A DNA stretch of 64,000 bases from Gemmatimonadales bacterium (GCA_020633775.1 JACKDA010000003.1:87211-151210); one strand, 5' to 3'. Counted from the stretch's first letter, positions 12,730 to 51,616 are shown. A program made the numbers and translations. The notes: generated by a model not told the origin, from the letters alone.

Positions 12730-13834
<1,105 letters not shown>

Positions 13835-13838
<4 letters not shown>

Positions 13839-20038: not shown

Positions 20039-20052
20039 CCTATCTTCCCCTG

Positions 20053-21801
20053 ATGACGACCACCCCAGCCGACCCCGAGGTCGTCGCCCGCGTCGAACGC
20101 CTCCTCGGCGGCCGGTTCCGCCTCGACCAGACGGTCGCGGTCTCGCAGGAGCGCATCCTCTTCCAGGCCTGGGACCTCCTGGTGCGCCGGACCGTCTCGC
20201 TCCGGGTGAACACCGGCGACGATCCGGCGCTCCGCCGCTGGTTCCTGAAGGAGTGCGAGGCCCTCGCCCGACTCGACCATCCGGCCATCCGCCACATCTA
20301 CGAGGCCGGGGTCATCGACACCATCGCCTACCGGGTCGGCAACTGGATCCTCGGTGAATCGCTGGAGGAGGCGATCCTCCGCGGCCCGCGGCCCGTCCCG
20401 GCGGTGCACGTCCTCGCCCGCGACCTCCTCACCGCACTGGAGCACGCGCACGCCCACGGCATCGTGGTCCGCCGCATCGTCCCGGCCTCGCTCCTCCTCA
20501 CCTCGACCGGGCGCGGGACCGTGACCGACCTGCGGTTCTGCAACCTCACGCTCCCCGAGATCCCGCCGACCGAGGTCCCCACCGGACTGGAGTACCTCGC
20601 CCCGGAGGTCCGCGAGGGCCAATCGGGCGACCCCGCGAGCGACATCTACACCGCCGCGGCGATCCTCTACTTCGCCGTCACCGCGACGCGCCCGCCGCTG
20701 GACCCGACCGCGCTCGTCCCGCCCACGAAGATCCGTGCGGTGGTCCCCGCCGCGCTCGAGCGGGTGATCCTCCGCGCGATGCTGCCCGCGCCGGAACAGC
20801 GCTACCTCACCGCGGCGGAGATGCTGGAACAGTTCACCAGCGATGCGGGCGAGTTCGAGTCCCCGCAGGTCGGGCTGCCGATGCTGGCGGTGCCGCACGA
20901 CGACGGGCGCCACTGGGAGGCCCGGCTGCGCCGGGCCCTCGGCGATGACTACGAGCTGCTCGACACCCTGGGGGAGGGCGGCTTCGGACGCGTCTACCGG
21001 GTGCGCGACCTCCACCTCGAACGCGAGGTGGCGCTCAAGATCCTCCACCCGCACCTCACCGCCGACGTCACCGTCGTCGAGCGCTTCCGCCGCGAGGCCC
21101 AGCTCGCGGCGCGCCTCAATCACGGCAACATCGTCAACATCTACGACATCTCCGGCCGCTCGGGGCTGCTCTGGTACACGATGGAGATCGTGCACGGGCC
21201 CAACATCGCCCAGCTTGTCGAGCGCGACGGGCCCCTCGCGGTCGACCAGGTCCTCCGGCTGCTGCGCGAGGCGCTCTCGGCCCTCGGGCACGCCCACGCC
21301 CTCGGCCTGGTCCACCGTGACATCAAGCCGGAGAACATGCTCCTCGAGCGCGACGGGTCGCTGCGGATCACCGACTTCGGGCTGGCCCTCGCCCTCCGTG
21401 GCGAGGGGCGCTTCGGCGGCGCGACCTCGCAGAGCGGCACGCCGCAGTTCGCCTCGCCCGAGCAGCTCCTCGGCGAGCAGGTGGACCAGCGCACCGACCT
21501 CTACTCGCTGAGCGCGGTCGCGTGCTACGCCCTGCTGGGGCGGGTCCCCTTCCCCGGCCGCACCCCGGAACAGGTCCTCGCCAAGCAGACGAGCGACATC
21601 GTCCCCGACCTCACCGAGGAACGCCCCGACGTCAGCGAGGCACTCTCGGCCGTGCTGGGACGCGCGCTCCGCAACAACGTCAATGCGCGCTGGGCCTCCG
21701 CGGGGGAGTTCCGCAGTGCCCTCGAGGAGGCGGTCCAGAAGGCGCTCCGCCGCCGCGGGGGCGAGCTGGCGCGCCTCGCGGCGCGGCTCCTCGGGGCCTG
21801 A
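20053..21801 (+). CDS. Tandem degenerate pseudokinase + canonical Ser/Thr kinase, soluble
   Basis: Second half: GEGGFGRVY, VALKIL, HRDIKPENML, DFGLA, SPEQ. First half is kinase-like but reads VSLRV, IVVRRIVPASLL and TDLRF at the catalytic positions. Confidence 0.8.
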   Translation: MTTTPADPEVVARVERLLGGRFRLDQTVAVSQERILFQAWDLLVRRTVSLRVNTGDDPALRRWFLKECEALARLDHPAIRHIYEAGVIDTIAYRVGNWILGESLEEAILRGPRPVPAVHVLARDLLTALEHAHAHGIVVRRIVPASLLLTSTGRGTVTDLRFCNLTLPEIPPTEVPTGLEYLAPEVREGQSGDPASDIYTAAAILYFAVTATRPPLDPTALVPPTKIRAVVPAALERVILRAMLPAPEQRYLTAAEMLEQFTSDAGEFESPQVGLPMLAVPHDDGRHWEARLRRALGDDYELLDTLGEGGFGRVYRVRDLHLEREVALKILHPHLTADVTVVERFRREAQLAARLNHGNIVNIYDISGRSGLLWYTMEIVHGPNIAQLVERDGPLAVDQVLRLLREALSALGHAHALGLVHRDIKPENMLLERDGSLRITDFGLALALRGEGRFGGATSQSGTPQFASPEQLLGEQVDQRTDLYSLSAVACYALLGRVPFPGRTPEQVLAKQTSDIVPDLTEERPDVSEALSAVLGRALRNNVNARWASAGEFRSALEEAVQKALRRRGGELARLAARLLGA

Positions 21802-35789: not shown

Positions 35790-38297
35790 ATGCCTCCTCG
35801 CGCCCAGCGCCCGTCGGTCCACAAGTTCGGGGGCGCGGCGCTCGCCGATGCCGCCTCGATCCGCGCCGTCACCGAGATCGTCCTCACCCGCCCCGGCCTG
35901 CCGATCGTGGTGGTGTCGGCGCTGCACGGCATCACCGACCTCCTCCTCGACCTGATCGCCACGGCGGAACAGGGCGCCTCCGCCCGCGCGGTGCGCGAGG
36001 CGGCCGCCTTCCGGCTCCGGCACCGCGAGGTCGTCGAGGCGCTGTTCGCCCCCGGCCGGCGCCGCGCCCTCCTCGCGGAGGTGACGGCCGCGAGCGACGA
36101 GCTGGAAGCGCTGGTGGCGGCCCTCGCCGTGCTGCGGGAGGCCTCCCCGCGGATCCGGGATCACGTCGTGGCGCGTGGCGAGCAGCTCAGCGCGCGGATC
36201 GTCGCGGCGGCCCTGACGACCCGACGTCGCCGCAGTGCGCCGGTGGACCCCGGTGAGGTGATCATCACCGATGGCCCCTACGGCGGCGCCTCCCCGGACC
36301 TCCAGGCCACCCGTACCGCGGCCCACGCCACGCTTGACCCGTTGCTCGCGGCGGGCGTGATCCCGGTGATCCCCGGATTCCTCGGTCGCGCCCCCGACGG
36401 CGGCCTCGCGACCCTGGGTCGCGGCGGTTCGGATCTCACGGCGACGACCCTCGGCCGCGCCCTCGGCGTGAGCGAGGTGACCCTCTGGAAGGATGTCCCG
36501 GGGCTCCTCACCGCCGATCCGCGCGTGGTGCCGGACGCCCGGCTCCTTCCGCTGGTCCACCCGAGCGAGGCCGCGGAGCTCGCCTACTACGGTGCCAAGG
36601 TCCTGCATCCCCGGGCGCTGCTGCCGCTCACCGGCAGCCGCACCGCCCTGCGGGTCCGACCGTTCGCGAACCCCGACGCGACCGGCACCGAGATCAGCAC
36701 CCGCCACGAGCCCGGCGCGCCGCCGGTCCGCTCGCTCTCCGCCGTCCGCGGGCAGGCGCTGGTGACGGTCGCCGGTTCCGGCATCCTCGGCGTGCCGGGC
36801 ATGTCCGCGCGAACCTTCGGTGCGCTGCAGACCGCCGGGATCTCGGTGTCGATGATCGCCCAGGCCTCCTCCGAGTACACCATCGACTTCACGGTGCCGG
36901 CCGAGGCCGCGGACCATGCCGTCGACGTGCTGCAGCGTGCCTTCCGCAGCGAGATCGCGCATGGCGAGCTCGAGGCGATCCGTGCCCGGTCCGGGGTGGC
37001 GATCGTCGCGGTGGTCGGGCTGCGCATGGCCGGGCATCCCGGCATCGCGGCCCGCGTCTTCGACGCCCTCGAGGCCGCCGACGTCAATGTCGTGTCGATC
37101 GCCCAGGGCTCGGCCGAGCACAACATCTCCATCGTGGTCGAGGGCGATGATGTGCCCGCCGCCCTGCGACGCATCCATGCCGCGTTCCAGCTCGGCAAGG
37201 AAGGCGGCGGGCGCCCCCGGCGACGGACCGGCAAGGACATCGTGCTCCTCGGGGCGGGCACGATCGGCTGCGCCACGCTCGACCTCCTCGCCGCCACGCC
37301 GCAGCGCTTCGCCTCGCTGCGGATCGTGGCGGTGGTCGACCGCCGCGGCGTGATCCACCGGATGTCGGGCCTCGGCCCCGCCGAGCTGCGCGGCATCGCC
37401 GCGCACAAGCGGGCGGGTGGCTCGCTCGCGGACCTCCCGAACGGCGAGCGATGCACGCCGGCCGAGGCGCTCCGCGCGCTCGCGCAGCGCGCACTGATCC
37501 GACCCGCGGTCGTCGACCTCACCGCCGAGGACACCAGCGAGTTGCTGCGCGAGATGGCGGAGGCGGGATTCGACGTGGTGCTCGCGAACAAGCGCCCGCT
37601 CGCCGCGCCGTTCGCCAGCTACCGCGCCCTCCTCGAGGCCCTCGAAGCGCACGGTGGCCGACTCCGTCACGAGGCCACGGTCGGCGCCGGACTCCCGCTG
37701 ATCCTCGCGGTGCAGCAATTGATCCGCACCGGCGATCGGGTGCGCCGCCTCGAGGGTGCCCTCAGTGGCACCGTCGGCACGGTGCTGAGCGCCCTCGACC
37801 GCGGGGTGCCATTCTCCGCCGCGGTGCGCGAGGCCCGCGAGGCCGGGATGACCGAGCCCGACCCACGCGACGATCTTTCGGGCGTCGATGTCGCACGCAA
37901 GGCGCTCATCCTCGACCGACTGCTTGGCCACCGCAGGAACCTGGAGGACGTGCGCGTCGAGACCCTCGTCCGCGGCGCGGTGCGCGGCGACCCCGCCGAT
38001 TGGCTCAAGGGACTCGACCGGGATGATGCCTGGTGGAGCGCGAAGGCGCAGGAGGCCCACGCGCACGGGCGGGTCCTCCGCTACATCGCCACGATCACCC
38101 GCAGCCGCGTCGAGGTGGGGCTCCGCGCGGTCCCGCGCGACCACCCGATCGGCCAGCTCTCGGGAGCGGCGAATCGTCTCGTCATCACCTCGGGGCGCTA
38201 TGGCAGGTCTCCGCTCGTGATCACCGGACCGGGAGCCGGGCCGGAGGTCACGGCGACGGGCGTGCTCGCCGATCTTCTCGGACTGACGGGGGCGTGA
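35790..38297 (+). CDS. thrA: Bifunctional aspartate kinase / homoserine dehydrogenase
   Basis: VHKFGGAAL kinase N-terminus, ACT region and a C-terminal homoserine dehydrogenase domain. 835 aa. Confidence 0.9.
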   Translation: MPPRAQRPSVHKFGGAALADAASIRAVTEIVLTRPGLPIVVVSALHGITDLLLDLIATAEQGASARAVREAAAFRLRHREVVEALFAPGRRRALLAEVTAASDELEALVAALAVLREASPRIRDHVVARGEQLSARIVAAALTTRRRRSAPVDPGEVIITDGPYGGASPDLQATRTAAHATLDPLLAAGVIPVIPGFLGRAPDGGLATLGRGGSDLTATTLGRALGVSEVTLWKDVPGLLTADPRVVPDARLLPLVHPSEAAELAYYGAKVLHPRALLPLTGSRTALRVRPFANPDATGTEISTRHEPGAPPVRSLSAVRGQALVTVAGSGILGVPGMSARTFGALQTAGISVSMIAQASSEYTIDFTVPAEAADHAVDVLQRAFRSEIAHGELEAIRARSGVAIVAVVGLRMAGHPGIAARVFDALEAADVNVVSIAQGSAEHNISIVVEGDDVPAALRRIHAAFQLGKEGGGRPRRRTGKDIVLLGAGTIGCATLDLLAATPQRFASLRIVAVVDRRGVIHRMSGLGPAELRGIAAHKRAGGSLADLPNGERCTPAEALRALAQRALIRPAVVDLTAEDTSELLREMAEAGFDVVLANKRPLAAPFASYRALLEALEAHGGRLRHEATVGAGLPLILAVQQLIRTGDRVRRLEGALSGTVGTVLSALDRGVPFSAAVREAREAGMTEPDPRDDLSGVDVARKALILDRLLGHRRNLEDVRVETLVRGAVRGDPADWLKGLDRDDAWWSAKAQEAHAHGRVLRYIATITRSRVEVGLRAVPRDHPIGQLSGAANRLVITSGRYGRSPLVITGPGAGPEVTATGVLADLLGLTGA

Positions 38298-39223
38298 TGT
38301 CCAACCGTGACGGCGTGGCCGTCTTCACACCCGGCTCGATCGGCAACGTCGGCCCCGGACTCGATATCCTCGGCCTCGCCGTCGCCGGCGCGGGCGACAC
38401 CGTCCACGCCTCCTGGGGCACCGCCTCCGGGATCACCGTCGTCGACACGGGCCATCCCGACCTCCCCGACGACCCGACCCGGAACACCGCGGCGATCGCC
38501 GCAGCCGCCGTCGCCCGGCACGCCGGGGCCTCACGGGGGATCGCCCTGCGCATCACCAAGGGGCTGCCCCTCTCCGGCGGCCAGGGCGGCAGCGCCGCCT
38601 CGGCGGTCGCGGGCGCGATGGCGGCCAACCTGCTCCTCGAGGCCGACCTCGACACCGCGACGCTCCTCACCTGCGCGCTGGAGGCCGAGGCGACGGTCGC
38701 GGGACGCCACCTCGACAACATCGCGCCGTCACTCCTCGGCGGCCTCGTCCTGATCCGCTCCCTCGAGCCGATCGATGTCGTCCGCCTCCCCGTGCCGCCC
38801 ACCCTCCGGGTCGTCCTCGTGCACCCGGCGATGCAGCTTCGCACGCGCGACGCCCGCGCGGCCCTCCCGACCGAGGTGCCACGCGATGTCGCGCTGCAGC
38901 AGGCCGCAAACGTCGCCGCGATGGTCGCGGGCGCCTGCCTCGCCGACCTCGCGCTCCTCGGGCGCGCCATCGATGATCGCATCGCGGAGCCGGTGCGCGC
39001 CGCGCTCCTCCCGGGCTTCCCCGACGCGCGACGCGCCGCGCTCGACGCGGGCGCCCTCGGCTGCTCGATCAGCGGGGCGGGTCCGACCGCGTTTGCACTC
39101 GCCGACTCCGACGAGGCCGCGACTGCCGTGGCCGCGGCGATGGTCGCGGCATATGCAACGGCCGGTCTCGAGGCACGCCCCGTGGTGACCCGCCCCGACC
39201 TCGAAGGGACCCGCCGCGCATGA
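38297..39223 (+). CDS. thrB: Homoserine kinase
   Basis: GSIGNVGPGLDILG and the GHMP motif PLSGGQGGSAAS. The ATG overlaps the thrA stop. Confidence 0.9.
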   Translation: MSNRDGVAVFTPGSIGNVGPGLDILGLAVAGAGDTVHASWGTASGITVVDTGHPDLPDDPTRNTAAIAAAAVARHAGASRGIALRITKGLPLSGGQGGSAASAVAGAMAANLLLEADLDTATLLTCALEAEATVAGRHLDNIAPSLLGGLVLIRSLEPIDVVRLPVPPTLRVVLVHPAMQLRTRDARAALPTEVPRDVALQQAANVAAMVAGACLADLALLGRAIDDRIAEPVRAALLPGFPDARRAALDAGALGCSISGAGPTAFALADSDEAATAVAAAMVAAYATAGLEARPVVTRPDLEGTRRA

Positions 39224-40494
39224 GCGAGCCGACTGCCATGACCATCGTCTGCGATGACTGCGGCACCACCCAGCCCGAGTTGTCCACGCGCACGCGCTGC
39301 ACCTGCGGCGGTCTCCTGCTCGTGCGCCATGTTCCCACCGTGACCGGCGACGCGCTCCGCCGCCGCTTCGACGACGCGTGCTGCGCGCGCCCATCGCGCA
39401 CCGCGTCCGGCGTCTGGCGCTTCGGGGAGATCGTCCAGCCGCTGGCGATGGCCGATGCGGTCTCGCATCCGGAAGGGAACACGCCGGTGATGCACCGGGC
39501 GGCACTCGCGGCGTGGGCCGGGATCGACGGCCTCGTCGTGAAGCACGAGGGCTACAACCCGACCGGCTCGTTCAAGGATCGCGGCATGACCGTCGCCGTC
39601 ACGCAGGCGCGCCGACTCGGCGCGCGTGCGGTCGCCTGCGCCTCGACCGGCAACACCTCCGCCTCGCTGGCATCGTATGCGGCCCAGGCAGGGATCCCGG
39701 CGCTCGTCTTCGTGCCGGAAGGTCAGGTCGCCATGGGCAAGCTGGCGCAATCGCTCGCGTACGGGGCGCGAACGCTCATGGTCCGCGGCGACTTCGACGA
39801 CTGCCTGCGGTTGGTCCAGGAGGCCGGCGACGCGCTCGGGATCTACCTGGTCAACTCCATCAATCCGTTCCGACTCGAGGGCCAGAAGACGATCGTCCTC
39901 GAGCTGCTGCGCCAGTTCGACTGGGATCCGCCCGACTGGATCTGCCTCCCGGCCGGCAACCTCGGCAACACCGCGGCCTTCGGGAAGGCGCTGGAAGAGG
40001 CGCACGCCTGGGGCCTGATCCCCCGCCTGCCCCGGCTGGCGGCGATCCAGGCGAGCGGCGCGGCGCCGTTCGCCGCGGCCTTCTCGCGGGGCTTTGACAC
40101 CCTCGTCCCCGTGCAGGCCGAGACCCTCGCCACGGCGATCCGCATCGGGGCCCCCGCCTCGTATCGGCGGGCTGTTCGCGCCATCACGGCGACCAATGGC
40201 GTTGTCCTCCACGTCGAGGACCGCGACATCCTCGAGGCGAAGGCGCGGATCGATGCCGCGGGGATCGGCTGCGAACCGGCCAGCGCGGCGGCGGTGGCAG
40301 GGGCCCGCGCCCTGCGGTCCAGCGGGGTCATCCAGCCGACCGACCGGGTCGCCGCGATCCTGACCGGTCACGTCCTCAAGGATCCCGGCATCGTCGAGCG
40401 GATGCACGGCGCAGGCGGACTCATCGAGGCCCCCAACCGGCCGGTGACCATCGATCCCACCCTCGAGGCGATATCGGCCGTCATCGACGGGTAG
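39220..40494 (+). CDS. thrC: Threonine synthase
   Basis: PLP-lysine motif GSFKDRG and an N-terminal Cys-rich zinc-ribbon-like segment. Overlaps the thrB stop. Confidence 0.9.
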   Translation: MSEPTAMTIVCDDCGTTQPELSTRTRCTCGGLLLVRHVPTVTGDALRRRFDDACCARPSRTASGVWRFGEIVQPLAMADAVSHPEGNTPVMHRAALAAWAGIDGLVVKHEGYNPTGSFKDRGMTVAVTQARRLGARAVACASTGNTSASLASYAAQAGIPALVFVPEGQVAMGKLAQSLAYGARTLMVRGDFDDCLRLVQEAGDALGIYLVNSINPFRLEGQKTIVLELLRQFDWDPPDWICLPAGNLGNTAAFGKALEEAHAWGLIPRLPRLAAIQASGAAPFAAAFSRGFDTLVPVQAETLATAIRIGAPASYRRAVRAITATNGVVLHVEDRDILEAKARIDAAGIGCEPASAAAVAGARALRSSGVIQPTDRVAAILTGHVLKDPGIVERMHGAGGLIEAPNRPVTIDPTLEAISAVIDG

Positions 40495-40716
40495 TCCGAC
40501 CCCTGTTGCAGCGGCGCAGCAATTGCTCAGGATAGTGTGGCGTCACTCCGGCACCTGCGGGTCGGCTGGAGCACCCTGTCCCGGGACCATCCGTGCCAAG
40601 TCATTATCAAACAACGCCTTACGGCTTTGCCGCACGATCGGCACCCGGGTTGCACCTCGGGAGGGCAACCGCGTGCCTCCTCCCCCGGGGGGTGCCACAG
40701 AAGGAGCCAGGTTCCG

Positions 40717-41457
40717 ATGATCCGCCAGAGTGCCCTCCTCGCCGCCGCCACCCTCCTGCTCGCCAGCCCGGCTCGGGCCGTCGATCCGGGGAAGGCGTTC
40801 GCGCCGGACTTCGGGACCAGCTCACCGTTCTTCTCGCTCTCCAACACGGTGACGGTGACCTACTACGGCTGGGAGGGAACCACCGTCTTCGGTCACACCC
40901 TCTGGGCCTTCACGGCCTCGCAGTTCGGGAGCAACAGCGCCAACGGCTGCTTCGGCTGGATGCCGGCAGCGACCTGCGCCGCGGTCATGGGCACCACCGT
41001 CGCGGCGAAGCCGTACGGCGCGAGTTCCTCGCCCTACCTCCCGGGGCAGGTGCCCGGGCCCGTCGTCTCCAGCTTCGGCTGGACGCCGGGGACCGAGATC
41101 ATCTTCGCGATCGCCGTCGACCAGGGCGACGGCTTCAACTGGTTCTTCTCGGGCAGCCCGAGCCGCAACAGCGACGGGCTCGCGCATGTGGCCTACTTCG
41201 ACCCGATTCTCTTCCCGCTGGGCGTGCCGGGGAATCAGGGGCAGGGCGTGGTGCCCCAGACCGCCGGCCTCTCGCTCTACGGCTTCGAGGACGTGGCGTA
41301 CCAGTACAGCGACTGGGACTTCGACAACGTGATCTTCGCGATCGACCAGGGGATCACCACCGAGACCGTGCCCGAGCCGGCCACGATGGTGCTCTTCGGC
41401 ACCGGTGCCTCGGCCCTGGCCGCGTTGCGCCGGCGGCGGCGCCCCACGACGACCTGA
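40717..41457 (+). CDS. Secreted PEP-CTERM-anchored protein with a DUF4114-like domain
   Basis: Signal peptide. GFEDVAYQYSDWDFDNVIF (DUF4114-like). C-terminal VPEPATMVLFGTGASALAALRRRRR sorting signal. AAGGAG upstream. Confidence 0.8.
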   Translation: MIRQSALLAAATLLLASPARAVDPGKAFAPDFGTSSPFFSLSNTVTVTYYGWEGTTVFGHTLWAFTASQFGSNSANGCFGWMPAATCAAVMGTTVAAKPYGASSSPYLPGQVPGPVVSSFGWTPGTEIIFAIAVDQGDGFNWFFSGSPSRNSDGLAHVAYFDPILFPLGVPGNQGQGVVPQTAGLSLYGFEDVAYQYSDWDFDNVIFAIDQGITTETVPEPATMVLFGTGASALAALRRRRRPTTT

Positions 41458-41491: not shown

Positions 41492-42967
41492 ATGAGGTCG
41501 ACCACTCGGGTCGGCCTCGTCGTGTTGTGCGTCGGGATCGCGGCGCAGGTGGCGGCGCACCTGGGCGACGTCGTGCTCGCCTTCTGGGATGCGCAGGCCC
41601 ATCTGGACATCGCCCGGCGGGTGATCGACTCGACCACTCCTGGTCTCCAGATGCTCGGCACGGTGTGGCTACCGGTGCCGCATCTCCTCTACCTGCCGTT
41701 CACGCAGATCGACCCGCTCTGGTGGAACGGCCTCGCCGGCGGCATCGTCGGCCTGGCGGCGTTCGTGCTCATGGCGGTCAGCGTCCACGACATCGTGCGG
41801 CGGCGGAGCGAGCGCGCGGCGGCGGCATGGATCGCCGTGGCGATCGTGGCGTGCAACCCCACCCTGCTCTACTTGCAGACCACCGCGATGACCGAGCCGC
41901 TGCTGCTCGGCTTCCTTGCGGCCGCCACCGCGCGCCTCGATCGCTGGCGCGAGGGCGGCGAGGATCGCCTCCTCCTCGGTGCCGGGGCCTGGACGGCGCT
42001 GGCGGTCGGCTCCCGCTACGATGGCTGGTTCTTCGCCGCCGTGGCGGCCGTTGCCGTCCTCGCCATCAGTCGACGCCTCGGTCCGGTGCTCCGCTTCGTC
42101 GCACTCCCAGCCGTCGTCGTGGCAGCGTGGCTCGTCTTCAATGCGGTGTACTTCGGCGACCCGCTCGAGTTCCAGCGCGGGATCTGGTCGGCCGCGAGCC
42201 AGCAGGCGACGCTCGCCGGCGAGGGCCTCCTCCCCACCCGCGGCGCGCCGCTGCTCGACCTCGGGTACTACCTCGGCGCGGTGGGCCTCACCTCCGGGTG
42301 GCTGCTGCTCGCGGTCGGCACCCTGGGGAGTCTCCTGGCACTTCGGCACCGGGAGCACCGGGTGGTCCTCCTCCTCCTCTGGTCGGTCCTCCCGTTCAAC
42401 GTGCTCGCCCTGTTCGCCGGCCAGAGTGCCATCGCCCTGCCCTGGACCGACCCGGCCGGGGTCCTCAACCTGCGCTACGGGATCATGCTCCTCCCGGCCC
42501 TGGCGGTGGGCGCGGTCCTCGGCCTGGAGCACCTCGCGACCCGGCGGGGCATGCTCCTCGCTCTTGCGGTGGTCGGGGCGCTGCAGGTCGGCCACTTCGC
42601 GTGGAAATGGCCCGCGGCGGTCGGCGGGCTGCGCGAGGGACTGGCGATCCGCGATGGTGATGCGGCCCAGATGCGGGCCTCCCGCTGGCTGGCGACCCAC
42701 TATGACCGGGGGCGGGTGCTGGTGGCCCCGGCAGTGAACATCTCGCCGCGGACCAGGATCCGGCTCCGCGACCGGGTGTACCCGTGGACCTGGGAACTGG
42801 GGCAGGCGGCGCTCGATGCCCCGGCCGAGGTGGTCGATTGGGTCGTCGTCGATCGCCGGGCCCAGGGCGACCCCGTGACCAAGGCCGTGGCGGCCGACAC
42901 CTCGTTCGCCCGCCGCTTCCAGCTCGCCTTCCGCGAGCGTGAACTCGAGATCTGGCAGCGCCGATGA
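41492..42967 (+). CDS. Polytopic membrane protein, GT-C/PMT-ArnT-like topology (function unassigned)
   Basis: About 11 hydrophobic helices followed by a ~90-aa soluble tail. Resembles the product of 46773..48146 by eye. The family call is tentative. Confidence 0.5.
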   Translation: MRSTTRVGLVVLCVGIAAQVAAHLGDVVLAFWDAQAHLDIARRVIDSTTPGLQMLGTVWLPVPHLLYLPFTQIDPLWWNGLAGGIVGLAAFVLMAVSVHDIVRRRSERAAAAWIAVAIVACNPTLLYLQTTAMTEPLLLGFLAAATARLDRWREGGEDRLLLGAGAWTALAVGSRYDGWFFAAVAAVAVLAISRRLGPVLRFVALPAVVVAAWLVFNAVYFGDPLEFQRGIWSAASQQATLAGEGLLPTRGAPLLDLGYYLGAVGLTSGWLLLAVGTLGSLLALRHREHRVVLLLLWSVLPFNVLALFAGQSAIALPWTDPAGVLNLRYGIMLLPALAVGAVLGLEHLATRRGMLLALAVVGALQVGHFAWKWPAAVGGLREGLAIRDGDAAQMRASRWLATHYDRGRVLVAPAVNISPRTRIRLRDRVYPWTWELGQAALDAPAEVVDWVVVDRRAQGDPVTKAVAADTSFARRFQLAFRERELEIWQRR

Positions 42968-44985
42968 GCTCCACCCCATTCAAGGGTCATCCCATGCCTT
43001 CCCGTGCCCTGCTCCTCCTTGCGGCGCTCCTCGTGGCCGCCTGTGATGCCCCGACTCCGGACGTGCCGGACACCGAGGCGGCCTCGGGCCTCGCCACCAT
43101 GGATTCCCTCGCGAGCGGGGGTGGCGTCGACTCCGCCGCGGCACCGCCGGTCGCGGCCTCGCCCGATTCGGTCGTGGTGGCAACGCCCACCCTCGCCGAG
43201 ATCGGGTATCAGGAGGGGATCACCCTCCTCGGGGCAGCCGACCGCACCACGCTCACGCTGCCGGTGCCCGAGGGCCTTGCCCCCCGGGAACTCCGCCTTC
43301 GGGTGCTCCCCACCCCGCGGATGCCGGACGCGACGGTGATCCTGCAGCAGGGTGCCCGGGTCCTCGCCCAGCGGGCGCTGAGCGACACGGCCACCGAGCT
43401 GGTACTGCCGCTCTCCGAGGTCATCGTGCAGCAGGGTCGCGCGATCGTCGACCTGGCAGTGAACGTCCCCGGGCGCGATGCCTGCGAGGCGCCGCTCTTC
43501 TACCGCACCGTCTTCACCCCGGATGGCGGGCTGACGTACGACGGTGCCCTCGCGCCGGTGCGCTCCGTCAGCGCGTTCTTCGCACCGTGGCTGCGGCGGG
43601 TGACCTTCTATCTCCCCGCCGAACCGTCGCTCGACGCGGCCCAGGCTGCGCTCGATGTCGCCGCGTATGTCGGGCGCCGCTATCGCGGGATGGGGACCCG
43701 GTTCGTGATCGGCGAACTTCCGCCGGATGGCGGGGCGATCCCGGAACCGCAGCTCGACGAGCGGGCCGTGGTGTGGGCCACCGACGGCCCCGCGGGGATC
43801 CTCGGTCCCGAGGGAGGGCGCGGGACGGTGCTCGCGATTGCCTCGCGCGGCGACGCCCGCACCCTGTTCACGCTGCCGCAGGGTCCGGCCCTCGTGCCGA
43901 CGTCCGCGTTCACGACCTCGCTGCTGCGCCTCGACCAGCGCTCGGCCGGCACGGTGAGTCTCGACGCGATGGGCGCCGGGACCCGCACCGTGCAGGGCAA
44001 CGCGATCGCGGCGGCGAACTATCGCTTCTCGCTCGCCGACTTCCGCAGCCAGGCCGGTCCGGTCGCGTTCCGGCTCGTCGCCGAACACGCCTCGCTGCCG
44101 CGCGAGACCACCGGCGAGGCGACCGTCCTGCTCAACGGCGCGGTGATCTGGTCCCGGCCGATCGACGAGGGACGGATCGACGCGACGATGCAGCTGCCGG
44201 CCCGGCTGCTGGCGCGGGACAACGACCTCGAGATCCGCTTCTCGGTCCGCCTCGGCGAGGGGGCCTGCATCCTCGGCGCACCGCTGTTCACGGCGACCGT
44301 GCTGGGCGAGTCGGCCTTCGTCCTCGGCGGCGGCGAGCCCTTCCCGCCGTCGTACGAGCGCTTCCCCGCCGCCCTCGTGCCGGAGTTCTCGGTCCTCCTC
44401 GAACCGCGCGACCGGTTCCGGGTCGAACTCGCCGCGACGATGATCGAGGCGATGCAGCGCACCACCGCCACGCCGATGGCGCCGGTGCTCCTGCGCGACG
44501 CCGCCGAGGCACGCGGCGCCCTGCTCGCGGTGGGAACCGCCTCGCTCGCCGACCGCCTCGGCGCACCGCTCGCGACCGACGGCTTCCGCCTGCGCGACAC
44601 CGATGGTCGGGTCTGGGATGAGTACGTGCCGTCGCAATCGTACGGGGCAATGCAGGCGTTCCAGGCCGACGGGCGCGACGTCCTCCTGCTCCACCACACC
44701 GGCGCCGACGGCGCCCCGCTGGCCGCGCTCGTCCGCGAGACCCTGGCCCCGTACGGCTGGTTCGGCGTCCACGGCGACCTCACCCTGCGCGGTCCGGAGA
44801 GCCCCGCGGCGACGATCACCGCGGCCAACTCCGGCTGGCGGATCGAGCCGATCGACACCCGGCCGGCCTCGTTCTTCGCGCGGTACCGCACCATGATCTT
44901 CGTCGGCATCGGCCTCCTGTTGCTGGCGCTCGTGGTCTGGTTCTACCCGCGCATGGTGCGGCGTGAGCTCGACGCGGCTCGGTGA
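42964..44985 (+). CDS. BcsB-like periplasmic subunit (lipoprotein signal, single C-terminal TM anchor)
   Basis: Lipobox LLVAAC. Two internal repeats of the type '...V.LNG..I......C...' that look like the duplicated BcsB modules. C-terminal helix MIFVGIGLLLLALVVWFY. ATGA overlap with the upstream gene. Not confirmed by search. Confidence 0.5.
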   Translation: MSSTPFKGHPMPSRALLLLAALLVAACDAPTPDVPDTEAASGLATMDSLASGGGVDSAAAPPVAASPDSVVVATPTLAEIGYQEGITLLGAADRTTLTLPVPEGLAPRELRLRVLPTPRMPDATVILQQGARVLAQRALSDTATELVLPLSEVIVQQGRAIVDLAVNVPGRDACEAPLFYRTVFTPDGGLTYDGALAPVRSVSAFFAPWLRRVTFYLPAEPSLDAAQAALDVAAYVGRRYRGMGTRFVIGELPPDGGAIPEPQLDERAVVWATDGPAGILGPEGGRGTVLAIASRGDARTLFTLPQGPALVPTSAFTTSLLRLDQRSAGTVSLDAMGAGTRTVQGNAIAAANYRFSLADFRSQAGPVAFRLVAEHASLPRETTGEATVLLNGAVIWSRPIDEGRIDATMQLPARLLARDNDLEIRFSVRLGEGACILGAPLFTATVLGESAFVLGGGEPFPPSYERFPAALVPEFSVLLEPRDRFRVELAATMIEAMQRTTATPMAPVLLRDAAEARGALLAVGTASLADRLGAPLATDGFRLRDTDGRVWDEYVPSQSYGAMQAFQADGRDVLLLHHTGADGAPLAALVRETLAPYGWFGVHGDLTLRGPESPAATITAANSGWRIEPIDTRPASFFARYRTMIFVGIGLLLLALVVWFYPRMVRRELDAAR

Positions 44986-46804
44986 CCTCCTCGTTGCCCG
45001 GGGCCTCCTCACCCCGGTCCAGCGCGCGGCCGCCCTCGTCCAGCAGCGCCGGACGGGGGAACGGCTCGGTCGCGTGCTGCTCACGATGGGCTTCGTCTCC
45101 CGCGTCGACCTGGCGCGCACCCTGGCGGCGCAGTGGGGACGCGAGTTCGTCCTCGTCGAGCCGACGATGGTGGACCCGGTTGCCGCGCGCCGCTTCCCGC
45201 TCGACGCCACGATGTCCTTCCGCGCCGTGCCGCTCACCGATGACGGCACCACGGTGGTCGTCGCCTCGGCGGAGGAACCGCAGCCGGCCCTGATCGAGAC
45301 GCTGGAGGTGGTCTACCCGGGCCGTGCGCTCGACATCCGGATCACCACCGAGTGGGACATCGACCGCGCGATCAGCGTCACCCACCGCCGCCAGCTCGTC
45401 GACGCCTCGATCTACGGCCTCTACTTCCGCGACCAGGCCGAGAGCGCGTACACGGTCTTCACGCCGGCGCAGTACCTCGGGTTCGTGGTGCTCGCGCTCG
45501 GGATCCTCGCCGGGCTCTGGGCCCAGCCGGTCTTCACGCTGCTGATGCTCAACGTCCCCGTGACCCTGCTCTTCCTCGCCGTGGTCGTGTTCCGCACGAT
45601 CGTCGGGGTGAGCGGCGCGGCGGCGGAGACGCAGATCGTCATCTCGACCGACGACGTCCGGGCGCTCGACGAACGGACCCTGCCGGTGTACACGATCCTC
45701 GTCCCGGTCTTCCGCGAGGCGAACGTCATCGGGAACCTGATCCGGGCGATCGGCGAGCTCGACTACCCGATCGACAAGCTCGACGTGCTCGTCCTCTTCG
45801 AGGAGAACGACCCGGAGACGCTCGCCGCCGCGAAGGCCGCCGCCCCGGGCGCGCACGTGCGGTTCATGGTCGTGCCGGCCGGGGAGCTGCAGACCAAGCC
45901 GAAGGCATGCAACGTCGGGCTGCTCTACGCCCAGGGCGAGCACCTCGTGATCTACGACGCGGAGGACCGCCCCGAGCCCGACCAGCTCAAGAAGGCGGTG
46001 CTCGCCTTCCGTCGCGGGCCGTCGCGGCTCGCGTGCGTCCAGGCCGCCCTCAACTACTACAACTGGAACGAGAACTTCCTCACCCGGATGTTCACGCTGG
46101 AGTACTCGTTCTGGTTCGACTACCTGCTCCCCGGGCTCGACCGGCTCCGGCTCCCGATCCCGCTGGGCGGCACCAGCAACCACTTCCGCACCGCGGTGCT
46201 GCGCGAGCTCGGCGGCTGGGACCCGTTCAACGTCACCGAGGACGCCGACCTCGGCATCCGGGCGGCGATGCACGGCTACCGGGTCGGGATCATCAACTCG
46301 ACGACATACGAGGAGGCGAACAAGCGGCTCGGCAACTGGCTCCGCCAGCGCTCGCGCTGGATCAAGGGCTACATGCAGACCGCGCTGGTCTTCTCGCGCG
46401 ACCCGATCGCCCTGGTGCGGCGCGCCGGGCTCCGCCAGGCGCTCGGCTTCATGCTGCTGATCGCCGGGACGCCGCTGATCTTCCTGCTCCAGCCGATCGC
46501 CATCGGACTCACCATCGGCTGGCTGGTCACCCGGACCCAGGCCCTCGCGCCGATCTTCCCGCCGTGGCTGCTGTACCTGTCGCTGTTCAACCTCCTGCTC
46601 GGCAACGCGCTGGCGATCTACGTGAACATGTTCGCGGTCTTCAAGCGCCGCCTGCACGTCCTCGTGCTGTTCGCCCTGTTCAACCCGTTCTACTGGATCC
46701 TGCACAGCATCGCCGCCGTCAAGGCGCTCGGCCAGCTGTTCACCCGTCCCTACTTCTGGGAGAAGACCGTCCATGGCCTCACCCGACACGGCGCCCCGGG
46801 CTGA
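44963..46804 (+). CDS. Processive family-2 glycosyltransferase (synthase type) with an N-terminal MshEN/T2SSE_N c-di-GMP-binding domain
   Basis: Residues 5-57 carry two copies of the 24-residue MshEN motif. Then 2 TM helices, the GT2 core (YDAEDRP, TEDADLG, QRSRW) and 3-4 C-terminal TM helices. There is no PilZ domain. GTG start. Confidence 0.8.
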   Translation: MSSTRLGDLLVARGLLTPVQRAAALVQQRRTGERLGRVLLTMGFVSRVDLARTLAAQWGREFVLVEPTMVDPVAARRFPLDATMSFRAVPLTDDGTTVVVASAEEPQPALIETLEVVYPGRALDIRITTEWDIDRAISVTHRRQLVDASIYGLYFRDQAESAYTVFTPAQYLGFVVLALGILAGLWAQPVFTLLMLNVPVTLLFLAVVVFRTIVGVSGAAAETQIVISTDDVRALDERTLPVYTILVPVFREANVIGNLIRAIGELDYPIDKLDVLVLFEENDPETLAAAKAAAPGAHVRFMVVPAGELQTKPKACNVGLLYAQGEHLVIYDAEDRPEPDQLKKAVLAFRRGPSRLACVQAALNYYNWNENFLTRMFTLEYSFWFDYLLPGLDRLRLPIPLGGTSNHFRTAVLRELGGWDPFNVTEDADLGIRAAMHGYRVGIINSTTYEEANKRLGNWLRQRSRWIKGYMQTALVFSRDPIALVRRAGLRQALGFMLLIAGTPLIFLLQPIAIGLTIGWLVTRTQALAPIFPPWLLYLSLFNLLLGNALAIYVNMFAVFKRRLHVLVLFALFNPFYWILHSIAAVKALGQLFTRPYFWEKTVHGLTRHGAPG

Positions 46805-48146
46805 GCCCCGGGCCCCGTGGGGGCTCCGGGTCGCGGTCGTGGTGCTGGTGGCACTCCCGCTGGTCCTGGCGGCCGCGGGACTCGCGCAGGATGGCTGGCT
46901 GAGCGACACCCACGGCGCGTTCCTCCACCGGGTCCGCTTCGCCCTCGAGCGCGGCCGCCTGGAGCTGCTCGGCTTCGAGTACCCGCCGCTCCCGTTCCTG
47001 CTGCTCGTGCCGTGGCCCCACGTCGCGATGACGTGGCTGCTCGGGGGCCTCGCGGTGGCCGGGCTCGCCTGGCTGGTGCTCGACGAGTGCACTGACCGCC
47101 GCTCCATGCTGCCGCTGGTCCTCCTCGTCGCGGCACTCTGGACCCCGATCGGCCTCCACCTGGTCAGCGGCGACTTCAACGAGGCCCTCGGCCTCCTCGC
47201 GCTCTTCATCGGCTGGCGCCACTACCGGCGGTGGTGGTCCACCCGCCAGACGATCCACGGCCTCTACGCCGGCCTCTGGCTCGGCTTCGCGTTCTACACC
47301 TCGCCGATCGGCCTCGCGGTGGCATTGATCGCCGGGGCCGTGCTGCCGCTGGTCTTCCCGCGACTGCAGATCCCGCCGTTCGCCTCGCAGCTCTCCCTGC
47401 TGGTCTTCCCCGGTGCCGCGGCCGCCGCGACCTGGGCCTACCTGTCGTGGGTGTTCATCGGGCGCGTGGCGCTGCCCTTCTCGCCGTGGGAACCTGGCTC
47501 GCCCGACCTCTGGACGATCCTCATCTGGACCATCCCGTTCCTCGCCGTGGCGGCGGTGGTCCTGAGTCGACCCCGGGCCACGACGGCGGGCATCCTGCTT
47601 CCGCTGATCCTGCTGGTCGGCGCCGGGCGGATCGGCTGGCACTATTCGCTGGCCTTCGCGGTGCTCATGCTCACGCTGGTCGCGATCGTCGCGCTGCCGC
47701 GCGACCTCGATCGGCTCACGCGTGCCGTCCTCGGCGTCGTGGCCGTCGTGCAGGCGGTCGTCGCCTGGCGGGTGCTCCCGCTGCCCAGGCTCGCGGAGGA
47801 GGACCTCGCGGCCCGTGCCGTCGCCGCGGCGCTCGCGACCGCCCCGCCACGCAGCGTGCTGCTCGATGATCGCTACGCCGAGCGCCTGCTCAAGTGGTCG
47901 CCGTCGCTGGAACCGTACCTGCTCACCCGCGACACCGGATTCGAGCTGGCGGTCGCCCGTCCGGTGAGCGCGGTGCAGTACGTCCTCGCGACGCCGGACG
48001 GCGAGGGACTCACCCTCGATGCCGATGTCCATCCACCCCCGGGATTCATCCGGACCTGGAGCTGGGAGGGGTACACCCTCTGGCGCCGAGCCGACGTGCC
48101 GACCCCCTCCGTCCGGTTCGATGTCCTGGCCGGGAGACTGCCATGA
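46773..48146 (+). CDS. Polytopic membrane protein, apparent paralog of 41492..42967
   Basis: Similar helix pattern and local matches (W.D..H...RV...LG...P.P.LL..P; .E.L.L....RW). Overlaps the synthase gene by 32 nt. Confidence 0.5.
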   Translation: MASPDTAPRAEPRAPWGLRVAVVVLVALPLVLAAAGLAQDGWLSDTHGAFLHRVRFALERGRLELLGFEYPPLPFLLLVPWPHVAMTWLLGGLAVAGLAWLVLDECTDRRSMLPLVLLVAALWTPIGLHLVSGDFNEALGLLALFIGWRHYRRWWSTRQTIHGLYAGLWLGFAFYTSPIGLAVALIAGAVLPLVFPRLQIPPFASQLSLLVFPGAAAAATWAYLSWVFIGRVALPFSPWEPGSPDLWTILIWTIPFLAVAAVVLSRPRATTAGILLPLILLVGAGRIGWHYSLAFAVLMLTLVAIVALPRDLDRLTRAVLGVVAVVQAVVAWRVLPLPRLAEEDLAARAVAAALATAPPRSVLLDDRYAERLLKWSPSLEPYLLTRDTGFELAVARPVSAVQYVLATPDGEGLTLDADVHPPPGFIRTWSWEGYTLWRRADVPTPSVRFDVLAGRLP

Positions 48147-48958
48147 TCCGCCGACTCGCCCGCGTCACGGCCCTCGTGGCCGTCTGTCTCCTCCCCGCCA
48201 CCGCCACCGCCCAGTGGACCGTGAAGCCCGGGGGATGGTTCATGTCGCACGGCTTCAACGTCGGGCGCTTTCCCGATCGCTTCTCCGCGGGGGAGGGGGC
48301 GACCCGGAACGAGCTGCGCAAGGTCGATTGGGGGATGTACTTCATCTACGGGCTGACGGAGGGGTTGAGCGTCGGGCTCGGGCAGGGCTTCGCCCACCTC
48401 GAGCAGCGGCTCACCACCGACACGCTGACCACCACCGGCTTCGGCTCGACCGGCTTCTTCGTCATGAAGCGGATCGCCCAGGGCCGCGGTGGCGTGCTCT
48501 CGATCCAGCCGCGGATCGACCTCCCGCTCCTCTTCGACACCGAGCAGCGCCCCGCCCTCGGCCCGATCGAGGCCGATGCCGAGCTGCGGCTCCTCTACGG
48601 CAACGGCTTCGGGATCGCCGGGACACGCGGCTTCCTCAGCGCGTCGGCCGGCCTGAGCACCATCCGCGCCGGCAACGACGAGATCCGCTACGACCTGACG
48701 GTCGGGGTGAATGCCGGGCGTCGCGTGCTGCTGATGGGTCAGGCGTTCAACGTCGCGGCCCTCGCCGAGGGCGGCGGGATCGCCTACTCCGCCACCAAGC
48801 TCGGCGGCTCGGCGATGCTGCGGCTCAGTCCCGCGGTGGGGGTGCTCGCTGGTTACTACGGCGGCGTGAGCGGCAAGAACACCGCCCGGGAACGCACCTT
48901 CTCGATCGCCATCTGGCTGACCCACGATCCGCAGGAGCCGGTCATCCCGACGCCATGA
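48143..48958 (+). CDS. Outer-membrane beta-barrel protein (candidate export pore)
   Basis: Signal peptide ...ATATAQW and an alternating amphipathic strand pattern. 271 aa. ATGA overlap with the upstream gene. Confidence 0.5.
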   Translation: MIRRLARVTALVAVCLLPATATAQWTVKPGGWFMSHGFNVGRFPDRFSAGEGATRNELRKVDWGMYFIYGLTEGLSVGLGQGFAHLEQRLTTDTLTTTGFGSTGFFVMKRIAQGRGGVLSIQPRIDLPLLFDTEQRPALGPIEADAELRLLYGNGFGIAGTRGFLSASAGLSTIRAGNDEIRYDLTVGVNAGRRVLLMGQAFNVAALAEGGGIAYSATKLGGSAMLRLSPAVGVLAGYYGGVSGKNTARERTFSIAIWLTHDPQEPVIPTP

Positions 48959-51616
48959 TCACGGCAGCCGGAGCGTGTCCCCAACGACGGTGAGGATGGC
49001 GCGACCACGCGCTTCGCGACTCGACGGCCCGACCGTGAGCCGGAACGCACCGGGTTCCACCACGCGCTGCAGGTCGGCATCGAGCAGGGCGAGGTCGTCG
49101 GGACCCAGCATCCAGGTCACCTCGCGCGACTGCCCCGGCGCGAGGGTCACCTTGGCGAAGCGCAGGAGACGCAGCACCGGCTGGGCCACCGACGCCAGCT
49201 CGTCGCGCAGGTAGAGCTGGACCACCTCCGACCCGGTCCGCGCACCGGTGTTGGTGATGGTCACCGCGACGCGCACCGAGTCACCCGGCCCCACGCTGTC
49301 CACCGGGAGCGTCAGCTCGCCGTACTCGAAGCTGGTGTACCCGAGCCCAAACCCGAACGGGAACGCCGGCCGACCGCTCAAGTCGAGATAGTCATCGCCA
49401 CGGCCGGTCGGCTTGTGACCGTAGAAGAGCGGCAACTGCCCCTCGTCGCGCGGGAACGTGATCGGCAACCGACCACTCGGCTCCAGGTCGCCGCGCAGCA
49501 CGTCGGCGAGCGCCGCGCCGCCCTGCTCCCCGGGATACCACGCCATCAGCACCGCGGCGACGTCGTCGCCCCACTCGTCGAGCGTGAACGGCGCCCCGCC
49601 CACCACCACCACGATCACCGGCGTCCCGGTCGCCGCAACCCGGCGAATCAGCTCCGGCTGTCGCCCCGGCAAGGCGAGCGAGGCCCGATCGCGAAACTCG
49701 CCCTCCTCGAGCCCCGCCACCACGATCGCGAGATCACTCCCACGCGCCGCCTCGACCGCCTCGGCGATCGCCCGCTCCTGCGCCGCCGGCTCGTCGCCCT
49801 GCCACGCCAACCGGATGCGCCCGTTGCCGGTGGTCTCGCGGAATTCGAGCCGGACCTTGTGGACGGTTCCTGCCGGAAGGGCTGTCCCGACCGGATGCAA
49901 CCCGTGGGACACCTGCGCCCAGCGGTCGAGCACGAGCACATCGTCGATCCAGAGCCGGAAGCCGTCGTCGCCCTCGACCGCGAGGCGACGGGGCCCGTCC
50001 GCAGGAACCACGACCTCACCGACCCAGCGCACGGCATACCAGTCGATCGGGAGCCCCGGCGCCGGCGGGACGAAGGTCCAGTGGAAGTCGACTTTGGGAT
50101 CGGCACGGGTGGCGGTCGGTTGACCAGAGATCTCAGGCGAAGCGAAGTAGCTGCCACTCAGCCCGGGCACCACACGCCCGTCACGCGTGGTGCGGAGCGC
50201 CGAGGCGGGCACGGTGGGCCACGCTTGATTCTCCCGTCCCGGCCCCTCGGTGAACGTCACCGTTCCGGTCGGCAGGTGCCCGCGCCACGCGTCGAGGAAC
50301 GAGACCGGCGCGACACCCGGCCCGCTGTAGCCGCCGAGTCGCGGTGTCGCGGCGTCGGGTCCGATCACCGCAATCCGCCGTGGTGCCTCGACCAGCGGCA
50401 GGATCCCGCGCGGATTGGTCAGCAGCACCATCCCCGCCGCGGCGGCCTCGCGCGCCAATGCCAGGTGCTCGGCGCGACCGTTCCACGCCGCCGCGCTGTC
50501 GGGATCGGCATACGGCTGCTCGAACAGGCCCAGCCGGAACTTGGTGCGGAGCACCCGCGCCACCGCGCGGTCGATCAGCGCATCGGGCACGCTGCCGTCG
50601 GTGAACGCGCGCAACCACGGCCGATGCTGCTCCCACGAGGATTGGAACACCACGTCGAGACCGGCGGCGAGCGCGCGGCGCGCCGAGGTGGCGACCGACG
50701 CCTCGGTCCGGTGGAGGACCGTGGCGCCGGCGGTGGCGGCCGCGTCGGAGATCACGATCCCGTCGAACCCCCACCGGTCCCGCAGCACCTCGGTGAGCAG
50801 GTAGCCATTCTGCGAGGCCGGCAGGCCGTCGACCGAGTTGTAGGCGCTCATCACCGACCGGGCCCCGCCCCGATGGATCGCGGCCTCGAACGGCGGGAAC
50901 CAGACCTCGCGGAGCTGGCGCTCGCTCGCCTCGATCGGCCACGAGTCGCGCCCCCCGTCGCCGACGTTGGCGACGAAGTGCTTCGGCGTGGTCACCACCC
51001 CCGCGCGCTCGAATGGCGAGACGAACGCCACGCCCAGCGCCGCGGCGAGCACCGGGTCCTCGCCGTAACTCTCCTCGGTGCGACCCCAGCGGGCATCCCG
51101 GCTGAGGTTCACCACCGGCGAGAGCACCTGCCGGATGCCGCGACTCCGCGTCTCCCGGCTTATCGCCCCGGCAACGCGGCCGACCAGCGCGGTGTCCCAC
51201 GTCGCGGCGAGGGCGATCGCCTGCGGGAACGCGGTCGCGCCGGGTCGCATCAGGCCGTGCAGCGCCTCGTCGAACGGCAGGAACGGGATCCCGAGCCGGG
51301 TGCTGTCGACGAAGTAGTGCTGGATCGCGTTGAGCCGGGCCGCGTGGGCGGCCGCGGCGTCGGCGGTCGAGTCCGTCGCGACGACCTGGAGGCCGAAGAC
51401 CCCGGCCCGGTAGTCGTGGGACGGATCATCGCGGTCGCCGGGCAGCATGAACAGCTGCCAGAACTTCTCGGCCGGCGTCATCCGGCCGAGCAGGTCGGCC
51501 ACCCGTGCCTCGACCGGCGCGGCGGCATCGCGATACGGGGCCCCAACGACCTGCGCGCCGCCCACCGCGGGAGCGGCGAGCAGCGCGCAGGCGAGGCCGA
51601 GCGTCCGGCGGGTCAT
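48959..51616 (-). CDS. Secreted GH3 beta-glucosidase-type glycoside hydrolase with an inserted PA14 domain
   Basis: Signal peptide, GH3 N-terminal and C-terminal domain sequence (GIVISDAAA nucleophile region) and a PA14-like segment (YFASPEISGQP...RWVGEVVVP...FRLWIDD). 885 aa. Confidence 0.88.
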   Translation of the reverse strand: MTRRTLGLACALLAAPAVGGAQVVGAPYRDAAAPVEARVADLLGRMTPAEKFWQLFMLPGDRDDPSHDYRAGVFGLQVVATDSTADAAAAHAARLNAIQHYFVDSTRLGIPFLPFDEALHGLMRPGATAFPQAIALAATWDTALVGRVAGAISRETRSRGIRQVLSPVVNLSRDARWGRTEESYGEDPVLAAALGVAFVSPFERAGVVTTPKHFVANVGDGGRDSWPIEASERQLREVWFPPFEAAIHRGGARSVMSAYNSVDGLPASQNGYLLTEVLRDRWGFDGIVISDAAATAGATVLHRTEASVATSARRALAAGLDVVFQSSWEQHRPWLRAFTDGSVPDALIDRAVARVLRTKFRLGLFEQPYADPDSAAAWNGRAEHLALAREAAAAGMVLLTNPRGILPLVEAPRRIAVIGPDAATPRLGGYSGPGVAPVSFLDAWRGHLPTGTVTFTEGPGRENQAWPTVPASALRTTRDGRVVPGLSGSYFASPEISGQPTATRADPKVDFHWTFVPPAPGLPIDWYAVRWVGEVVVPADGPRRLAVEGDDGFRLWIDDVLVLDRWAQVSHGLHPVGTALPAGTVHKVRLEFRETTGNGRIRLAWQGDEPAAQERAIAEAVEAARGSDLAIVVAGLEEGEFRDRASLALPGRQPELIRRVAATGTPVIVVVVGGAPFTLDEWGDDVAAVLMAWYPGEQGGAALADVLRGDLEPSGRLPITFPRDEGQLPLFYGHKPTGRGDDYLDLSGRPAFPFGFGLGYTSFEYGELTLPVDSVGPGDSVRVAVTITNTGARTGSEVVQLYLRDELASVAQPVLRLLRFAKVTLAPGQSREVTWMLGPDDLALLDADLQRVVEPGAFRLTVGPSSREARGRAILTVVGDTLRLP

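Follow-up and report, generated by a model that had tools for sequence, protein, structure and literature searches.

The question raised by positions 44963-46804 of the 64,000-nucleotide stretch of DNA analysed here (Gemmatimonadales bacterium, GCA_020633775.1 JACKDA010000003.1:87211-151210; hereafter the window) is whether the membrane glycosyltransferase encoded there is itself a receptor for c-di-GMP (cyclic dimeric GMP). The open reading frame (ORF) on the + strand encodes 613 residues from a GTG start codon, and no start is possible further upstream. A sequence-only reading of the window had noticed two tandem copies of the 24-residue MshEN motif at the N-terminus of this protein and had predicted direct c-di-GMP control of polymerisation, by a module standing in for the C-terminal PilZ domain of BcsA-type synthases. 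Here we identify the protein as an XagB orthologue in which a complete MshEN domain precedes a processive family 2 glycosyltransferase (GT2), and we consider that c-di-GMP probably binds the N-terminal helical bundle and allosterically switches on the synthase.

Translation of 44975-45133 (+) gives residues 5-57 as RLGDLLVARGLLTPVQRAAALVQQ, RRTGE and RLGRVLLTMGFVSRVDLARTLAAQ, in agreement with the tandem arrangement described before: the two 24-residue motifs are separated by exactly five residues (29-33), the second motif keeps 11 of the 11 specified consensus positions, and the first keeps ten, with Arg in place of Leu at position 17. In a six-frame regular-expression scan of the whole 64-kb window that tolerated two substitutions, these two copies were the sole matches, and the number of exact motif matches expected by chance in the window is 1.8e-7. 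The G+C content by codon position in the ORF frame (0.96 at the third position, GC3; 0.45 at the second, GC2) shows the pattern of a real gene. A protein search returned at least 8000 homologues, and details were taken from the best 120, which match over the full length; all but five of these carry a precomputed Pfam MshEN hit together with GT2 families. Relatives have the N-terminal sequence MSS(T/I)RLG in common with the window protein.

Profile hidden Markov models (HMMs) place both parts of an MshEN domain on this N-terminus. The NCBIfam model NF053729 (c-di-GMP_motif, 53 positions) scores 59.2 bits (E = 2.5e-16, cutoff 38 bits), its positions 1 to 53 aligning with residues 5-57, and the Pfam MshEN model matches residues 58-138. 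Since the Pfam model does not cover the first helices of the bundle (Wang et al. 2016, supplement), the Pfam hit corresponds to the MshEN_C subdomain. A phmmer search of the PDB sequences matched PilF (E = 9e-23), PilB (2e-12), and Vibrio cholerae MshE (5HTL, 8e-10). Residues 4-105 align with 5HTL without a gap, window residue n corresponding to MshE residue n+4. R5, L6, G7, D8, G14, R21, L25, and Q28 of motif I lie on R9, L10, G11, D12, G18, L25, L29, and Q32 of MshE, and R34, L35, G36, G43, L50, L54, and Q57 of motif II on R38, L39, G40, G47, L54, L58, and Q61. The mapped motif residues fall on ligand-contacting or turn residues, and the motifs land on the binding helices of 5HTL.

The predicted structure gives the same picture. 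The AlphaFold2 (AF2) model of residues 1-150 (predicted local distance difference test score, pLDDT, 92.1) has helices at residues 3-12, 18-31, 35-42, and 47-58, and an alpha/beta unit at residues 72-140 follows this four-helix bundle. When this model is compared with the PDB by Foldseek, each of the top 20 matches is an MshEN/GSPII domain, and MshE bound to c-di-GMP ranks first (5HTL, E = 3.9e-9, TM-scores 0.58 and 0.62). The N-terminus is a complete MshEN domain, with a four-helix bundle formed by the two motifs and then MshEN_C. The domain shares both motifs, the spacer of five residues, the four-helix bundle, and MshEN_C with V. cholerae MshE and with GSPII-B of Thermus thermophilus PilF; unlike in those proteins, it is joined to a glycosyltransferase and not to a secretion ATPase, and Arg stands at the equivalent of Leu25.

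The remainder of the protein is a BcsA/hyaluronan synthase (HAS)-like processive membrane GT2. Pfam assigns Glyco_trans_2_3 and Glyco_tranf_2_3 over residues 243-532. Across 121 aligned sequences, D332, D335, T425-E-D, R463, R465, and W466 are invariant, and Q462 (116/121), S464 (117/121), and E334 (116-117/121) nearly so. The full-length AF2 model (pLDDT 88.3; predicted template-modelling score 0.88) contains five transmembrane helices, and its Foldseek matches are BcsA and hyaluronan synthases (E = 1e-14 to 1e-11), with BcsA (9b8v/4p00) at 1e-14 to 1e-13 and CvHAS at a TM-score of 0.60. Pfam detects no PilZ domain, and the chain ends 19 residues past the last transmembrane helix. Pfam, AF2, and Foldseek thus agree with the earlier claim of an MshEN domain at the N-terminus of a membrane glycosyltransferase that lacks PilZ. 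The NCBIfam model for CelA (TIGR03030) reaches 53.8 of the 699 bits that its cutoff requires, and the PgaC model is likewise far below its cutoff.

Gating loops carry FxVTxK in BcsA and WGTSGR in HAS. By analogy with these, the nearly invariant WEKTxHG behind the last transmembrane helix is a candidate gating loop. With BcsA-BcsB the window protein has in common a similar membrane-integrated GT2 fold, a BcsB-homologous partner encoded directly upstream, and an expected control by c-di-GMP. Unlike BcsA, to which its identity is about 19-20%, it has neither PilZ nor FxVTxK, and it combines a HAS-like topology of two plus three transmembrane helices with the C-terminal WEKTxHG.

Among the closest known systems is Xanthomonas XagB (xagABCD; XCC0678 / XOC_3784), with 44% identity over residues 6-610 in two Xanthomonas loci (BLASTP E = 8e-162), and at the N-terminus the proteins from these loci are very similar to the XCC0678 sequence that Wang et al. 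printed. The full-length similarity and the XagA-like and XagC-like genes nearby identify the window protein as an XagB orthologue. The order of MshEN and GT2 and the XagA-like and XagC-like neighbours are common to both systems. They differ in that the window, from the phylum Gemmatimonadota, has a BcsB-like gene upstream, the XagA-like gene downstream instead of upstream, and the XagC-like gene in duplicate; moreover, the c-di-GMP motifs are far better kept in the window protein than in Xanthomonas. Several close relatives carry the JGI label "glycosyltransferase XagB". Among the matches listed, the nearest named ones, at 72-93% identity, come from Gemmatimonadales metagenome-assembled genomes; Truepera, Thermorudis, Anaerolineae, and Oceanithermus are next.

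The architecture is widespread. A pattern scan with one genome per species found at least 599 stretches encoding relatives, and the 80 loci taken from them belong to Chloroflexota, Actinomycetota, Firmicutes, Bacteroidota, Proteobacteria (Xanthomonas included), Cyanobacteria, Aquificota, Acidobacteriota, Nitrospinota, and others. A regular expression built on the "relaxed" motif of Wang et al. misses some members of the family, since Leu is the usual last residue of motif II, and it is used descriptively only. The survey that the sequence-only reading had proposed shows that the fusion of MshEN to GT2 is common, often beside GGDEF genes, and each computational check proposed with that reading has turned out in its favour. 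By raw count, a GGDEF or EAL gene lies within 8 kb of XagB in 15 of 84 loci. GGDEF, REC-GGDEF, GGDEF-EAL, or EAL genes directly flank XagB/XagC in several phyla: in a metagenome contig (L003), two loci of Paenarthrobacter/Arthrobacter, Novosphingobium, a further alphaproteobacterium, a member of the Dehalococcoidia, Cellulomonas, and a member of the Sporomusaceae. This placement of cyclase genes resembles the local pairing of DgcJ with NfrB in Escherichia coli.

Published work supplies further links to c-di-GMP. Wang et al. (2016, Supplementary Table 4) listed the architecture "MshEN - Glyco_trans_2_3", with Rhodobacter sphaeroides Rsph17029_0522 as the example, and placed both this protein and XCC0678 with those MshEN proteins for which c-di-GMP binding is likely. 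In Xanthomonas, deletion of the HD-GYP protein RpfG raises xag expression, and a xag-dependent biofilm forms (PMC3609779). In E. coli NfrB, c-di-GMP is bound by a C-terminal MshEN domain that is required for glycan production, so that a GT2 can be activated by an MshEN domain (PMC8669469). NfrB is likewise a processive GT2 (DxD/TED/QxxRW) fused to MshEN, but its MshEN domain follows the transmembrane helices, whereas that of the window protein precedes the first of them. The NfrB model NF008411 reaches 46.3 bits, well short of its cutoff of 1170, and its match is confined to residues 4-113, that is, the MshEN part; the glycosyltransferase domains are not specifically related. The partners also differ, being NfrA/YbcH for NfrB and BcsB-like, XagC-like, and XagA-like proteins in the window.

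A comparable case is found in the clusters proposed to serve stalk formation in iron oxidisers (sfz; bcsB-like plus xagBCD), which share the BcsB-like gene with the window and encode the XagB-like Sfz2. Sfz2, a stalk-formation candidate of Zetaproteobacteria, combines T2SSE_N with GT2 as the window protein does (PMC8250860). Its N-terminal domain was read by the authors as an EpsE-like secretion domain, and RxxxR/RxxD motifs were sought (PMC8250860). Reading this domain as MshEN would supply a concrete receptor for the c-di-GMP link that those authors proposed.

In the mechanism that we propose, the inner-membrane GT2 would polymerise a sugar nucleotide and thread the chain through its own transmembrane channel, and the BcsB-like, XagC-like, and XagA-like products of the cluster would assist it. 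One c-di-GMP molecule would bind the bundle, with each guanine held between a motif-initial Arg and a leucine cluster, and binding would reorient the MshEN subdomains. The change may then travel through the linker helix (residues 142-152) and the first transmembrane helix to the catalytic domain or the gating loop and relieve auto-inhibition, such that polymer would be made only at high cellular c-di-GMP. MshEN would here do the job of the C-terminal PilZ domain in BcsA and of the C-terminal MshEN domain in NfrB.

The motifs had been called textbook, which goes a little too far. The motif positions are strongly conserved among the 121 relatives, the spacer has five residues in 120 of them, and R30, T31, G32, and E33 each show conservation of 90% or more. 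R21 is the equivalent of V. cholerae Leu25, which in MshE forms with Leu29 and Leu39 the triangle that stacks on guanine 1; the other five of the six guanine-stacking leucines (L10, L29, L39, L54, and L58 of MshE) are kept. In the alignment, 117 of 121 relatives have Leu in this column, and Arg is found only in the window protein, in its 93%-identical relative (P0001), and in P0054. Since the window protein and P0001 on the one side and P0054 on the other carry Arg21 separately, the substitution arose at least twice within the close Gemmatimonadales relatives. Its codon, CGC at 45023-45025, is one base change away from CTC. The last residue of motif II also varies (Leu in 75, Arg in 26, and the consensus Gln in 13 of the 121), and the window protein has Gln. 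A compensatory pairing of R21 with Q57 was considered and rejected, as P0054 combines R21 with L57.

These features bear on whether the domain is a genuine MshEN fold that binds c-di-GMP weakly or not at all, owing to the Leu-to-Arg change or to its context. It would then serve mainly as a structural, auto-inhibitory, or partner-docking module, with the synthase under transcriptional or protein-partner control. Several observations weigh on this side and against c-di-GMP control. R21 occupies a ligand-contacting position of the guanine-1 cluster; in V. cholerae MshE, single Leu-to-Ala changes elsewhere in the clusters lower the affinity more than 10-fold, and the non-binder XpsE has L29R as one of its changes. 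PilF GSPII-A did not bind even with all motif positions returned to consensus (PMC12002112), so that the consensus motif is insufficient for binding. Fold similarity does not separate the two groups either, since Foldseek ranks the non-binders GSPII-A, XpsE, and Xanthomonas citri PilB-N beside the binders; the last two, with the same fold, bind a PilZ protein or nothing (PMC10333796).

The family and the window add to these points. The domain is retained while RLG and other key motif residues are lost in eleven Mucilaginibacter and four Microbacteriaceae loci, and motif II is degenerate in the Xanthomonas homologue. Because many members keep the domain with degenerate motifs, it seems to have a nucleotide-independent role as well. 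No GGDEF, EAL, HD-GYP, or PilZ domain was found in the roughly 38 ORFs scanned in the window, and in the searchable literature, outside which subscription-only papers lie, no binding or activity measurement was found for any N-terminal MshEN-GT2 protein.

On the other side, the window protein has lost a single specified position of the two motifs, and its HMM score is far over the cutoff. In V. cholerae MshE, the L25A variant keeps nearly full ligand stabilisation (9 °C by c-di-GMP, compared with 10 °C for the wild type), so that the Leu25 position tolerates change and R21 alone does not exclude binding. Arg sidechains often stack on guanine, R9 and R38 doing so in this same domain of MshE, and the repeated Leu-to-Arg changes in close relatives came without further decay of the motifs. 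Finally, only four residues precede R5, so that an extended capping helix, which blocks GSPII-A, is lacking here. On balance, a weak or non-binding domain, the main rival reading, is considered unlikely, and the activating c-di-GMP switch remains the preferred explanation.

The Leu-to-Arg change and the Gln at the end of motif II may also define a variant mode of MshEN, with an Arg-stacked guanine pocket and a shifted affinity or dinucleotide preference. More broadly, the N-terminal MshEN domain might steer XagB-type synthases in a manner unlike PilZ gating, for example, via the C-terminal WEKTxHG loop. We regard this extension as rather improbable.

Binding of another cyclic dinucleotide, such as 3'3'-cyclic GMP-AMP (cGAMP), or a specificity altered via R21 seems highly improbable. 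V. cholerae MshEN does bind cGAMP weakly (PMC5013675), and R21 would alter one guanine pocket only. However, G7/D8 and G36/R37, whose backbone amides read guanine O6/N7, are retained in register, close relatives that carry Leu in place of R21 are nearly identical elsewhere, and no cGAS/DncV-like gene is present among the window ORFs scanned. An origin of the motif by chance, or through a wrong frame or start codon, has nothing in its favour except that a sequence with 71.7% G+C yields many long spurious ORFs, and it was ruled out by the homologues, the NCBIfam match, the codon-position G+C content, and the chance expectation given above.

The gene for the XagB-type synthase lies in a compact cluster, the coordinates of which are collected in Table 1 with the features of the protein. 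Since the cluster genes overlap, they appear to form a single operon. Neighbour counts for the family rest on iterated HMM searches over 84 loci; these were used because single-sequence tblastn searches of the neighbours against 83 related loci gave 7-14 hits and were too insensitive. The XagC-like gene is the most constant neighbour of XagB, occurring in 69 of the 84 loci and directly downstream in 56, Xanthomonas included. A BcsB-like gene is present in 45 (directly upstream in 30), and an XagA-like gene in 16. The trio of BcsB-like, MshEN-GT2, and XagC-like genes also occurs in Truepera radiovictrix and in metagenome contig L003, and it corresponds to the sfz clusters of the iron oxidisers.

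Table 1 Features of the synthase gene, its product, and the surrounding cluster, in window coordinates.
Feature	Position	Strand	Basis and remarks
PEP-CTERM sorting-signal protein (exosortase substrate type)	40537..41457	+	NCBIfam and Pfam PEP-CTERM; directly upstream of the cluster, association uncertain
XagC-like paralogue, 520 aa	41405..42967	+	PMT_2/GT-C signal weak; overlaps the BcsB-like start (ATGA)
BcsB-like periplasmic partner, C-terminal transmembrane anchor	42964..44985	+	Pfam BcsB, 27 bits; stop overlaps the synthase start by 23 nt
XagB-type synthase, 613 aa	44963..46804	+	N-terminal MshEN, 2 transmembrane helices, GT2 catalytic domain, 3 transmembrane helices
MshEN motif I, residues 5-28	44975..45046	+	RLGDLLVARGLLTPVQRAAALVQQ; position 17 = R21, Leu expected
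Spacer RRTGE, residues 29-33	45047..45061	+	Five residues
MshEN motif II, residues 34-57	45062..45133	+	RLGRVLLTMGFVSRVDLARTLAAQ; exact consensus match
MshEN_C (T2SSE_N1) alpha/beta subdomain, residues 58-138	45134..45376	+	Pfam PF05157, 32.3 bits (cutoff 23.1); AF2 secondary structure
N-terminal transmembrane helices, residues 168-187 and 189-220, after linker helix 142-152	45464..45622	+	AF2
GT2 catalytic domain, residues ~229-480	45647..46402	+	Pfam
D332-A-E-D335	45956-45967	+	Within the GT2 domain
T425-E-D427	46235-46243	+	Within the GT2 domain
Q462-R-S-R-W466	46346-46360	+	Within the GT2 domain
Three C-terminal transmembrane helices (490-594), then W599-E-K-T-x-H-G605 (46757-46777)	46430..46777	+	AF2; conservation
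XagC-like polytopic membrane protein, 457 aa	46773..48146	+	Iterated HMM; start overlaps the synthase stop
XagA-like protein, 271 aa, signal peptide	48143..48958	+	Profile E = 1e-86; ATGA overlap with the XagC-like stop
GH3 beta-glucosidase with PA14 insert	48959..51616	-	Pfam; convergent, association uncertain

The neighbours differ in how closely they can be compared with known proteins. The BcsB-like protein as a single sequence had no significant match in the PDB (three chance-level hits, E at least 0.04), but its family profile matches E. coli BcsB structures at E = 1e-9. The XagC-like protein of 457 residues has no Pfam match, and no PDB match was found with either the single sequence or the profile. 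XagC-like genes are present twice, on either side of the BcsB-like and synthase genes, and a weak PMT_2 (GT-C-like) signal is seen in 4 of 13 members. The XagA-like protein matches the product of the gene directly upstream of Xanthomonas XagB (profile E = 1e-86; direct BLASTP E = 4e-5). Against the PDB it gave non-significant porin hits only and a weak MetA-barrel hint; it is probably an outer-membrane barrel.

The GH3 gene abuts the XagA-like gene at 48958/48959 with zero spacer, and its product is a possible polymer-trimming enzyme. In the Truepera locus, the same position is taken by a convergent GH5 cellulase (11311-12318, -). The GH3 enzyme here and the GH5 cellulase in Truepera hint that the polymer is possibly a beta-glucan. 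The PEP-CTERM protein upstream of the cluster suggests a surface or floc-associated protein expressed along with the polymer.

The fusion of MshEN to GT2 was catalogued in 2016 (Wang et al.), and its parts are recognised by Pfam, NCBIfam, and JGI; finding it here is expected and not surprising, and c-di-GMP control of the XagB family has been predicted since then. If the proposed switch is correct, Gemmatimonadota gain an exopolysaccharide synthase with its own direct receptor for c-di-GMP. The window protein adds a well-preserved example to a family with matches in more than 10 phyla, plant pathogens and iron oxidisers that form stalks among them. With its near-canonical motifs, high-confidence model, and compact operon, the Gemmatimonadota/Deinococcota/Chloroflexota subfamily is a reasonable candidate for the biochemistry and electron cryomicroscopy of MshEN-gated synthases.

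Other genes in the window include the small and large subunits of a [NiFe] hydrogenase with HypB-like, HypF, and HypD maturation genes (5096-13838) and two Ser/Thr protein kinases (14918-17482, -, and 19963-21801, +), one with a long TPR region. A threonine operon at 35790-40494 (+), with aspartokinase-homoserine dehydrogenase, a GHMP-family kinase, and threonine synthase, stops just short of the polysaccharide cluster.

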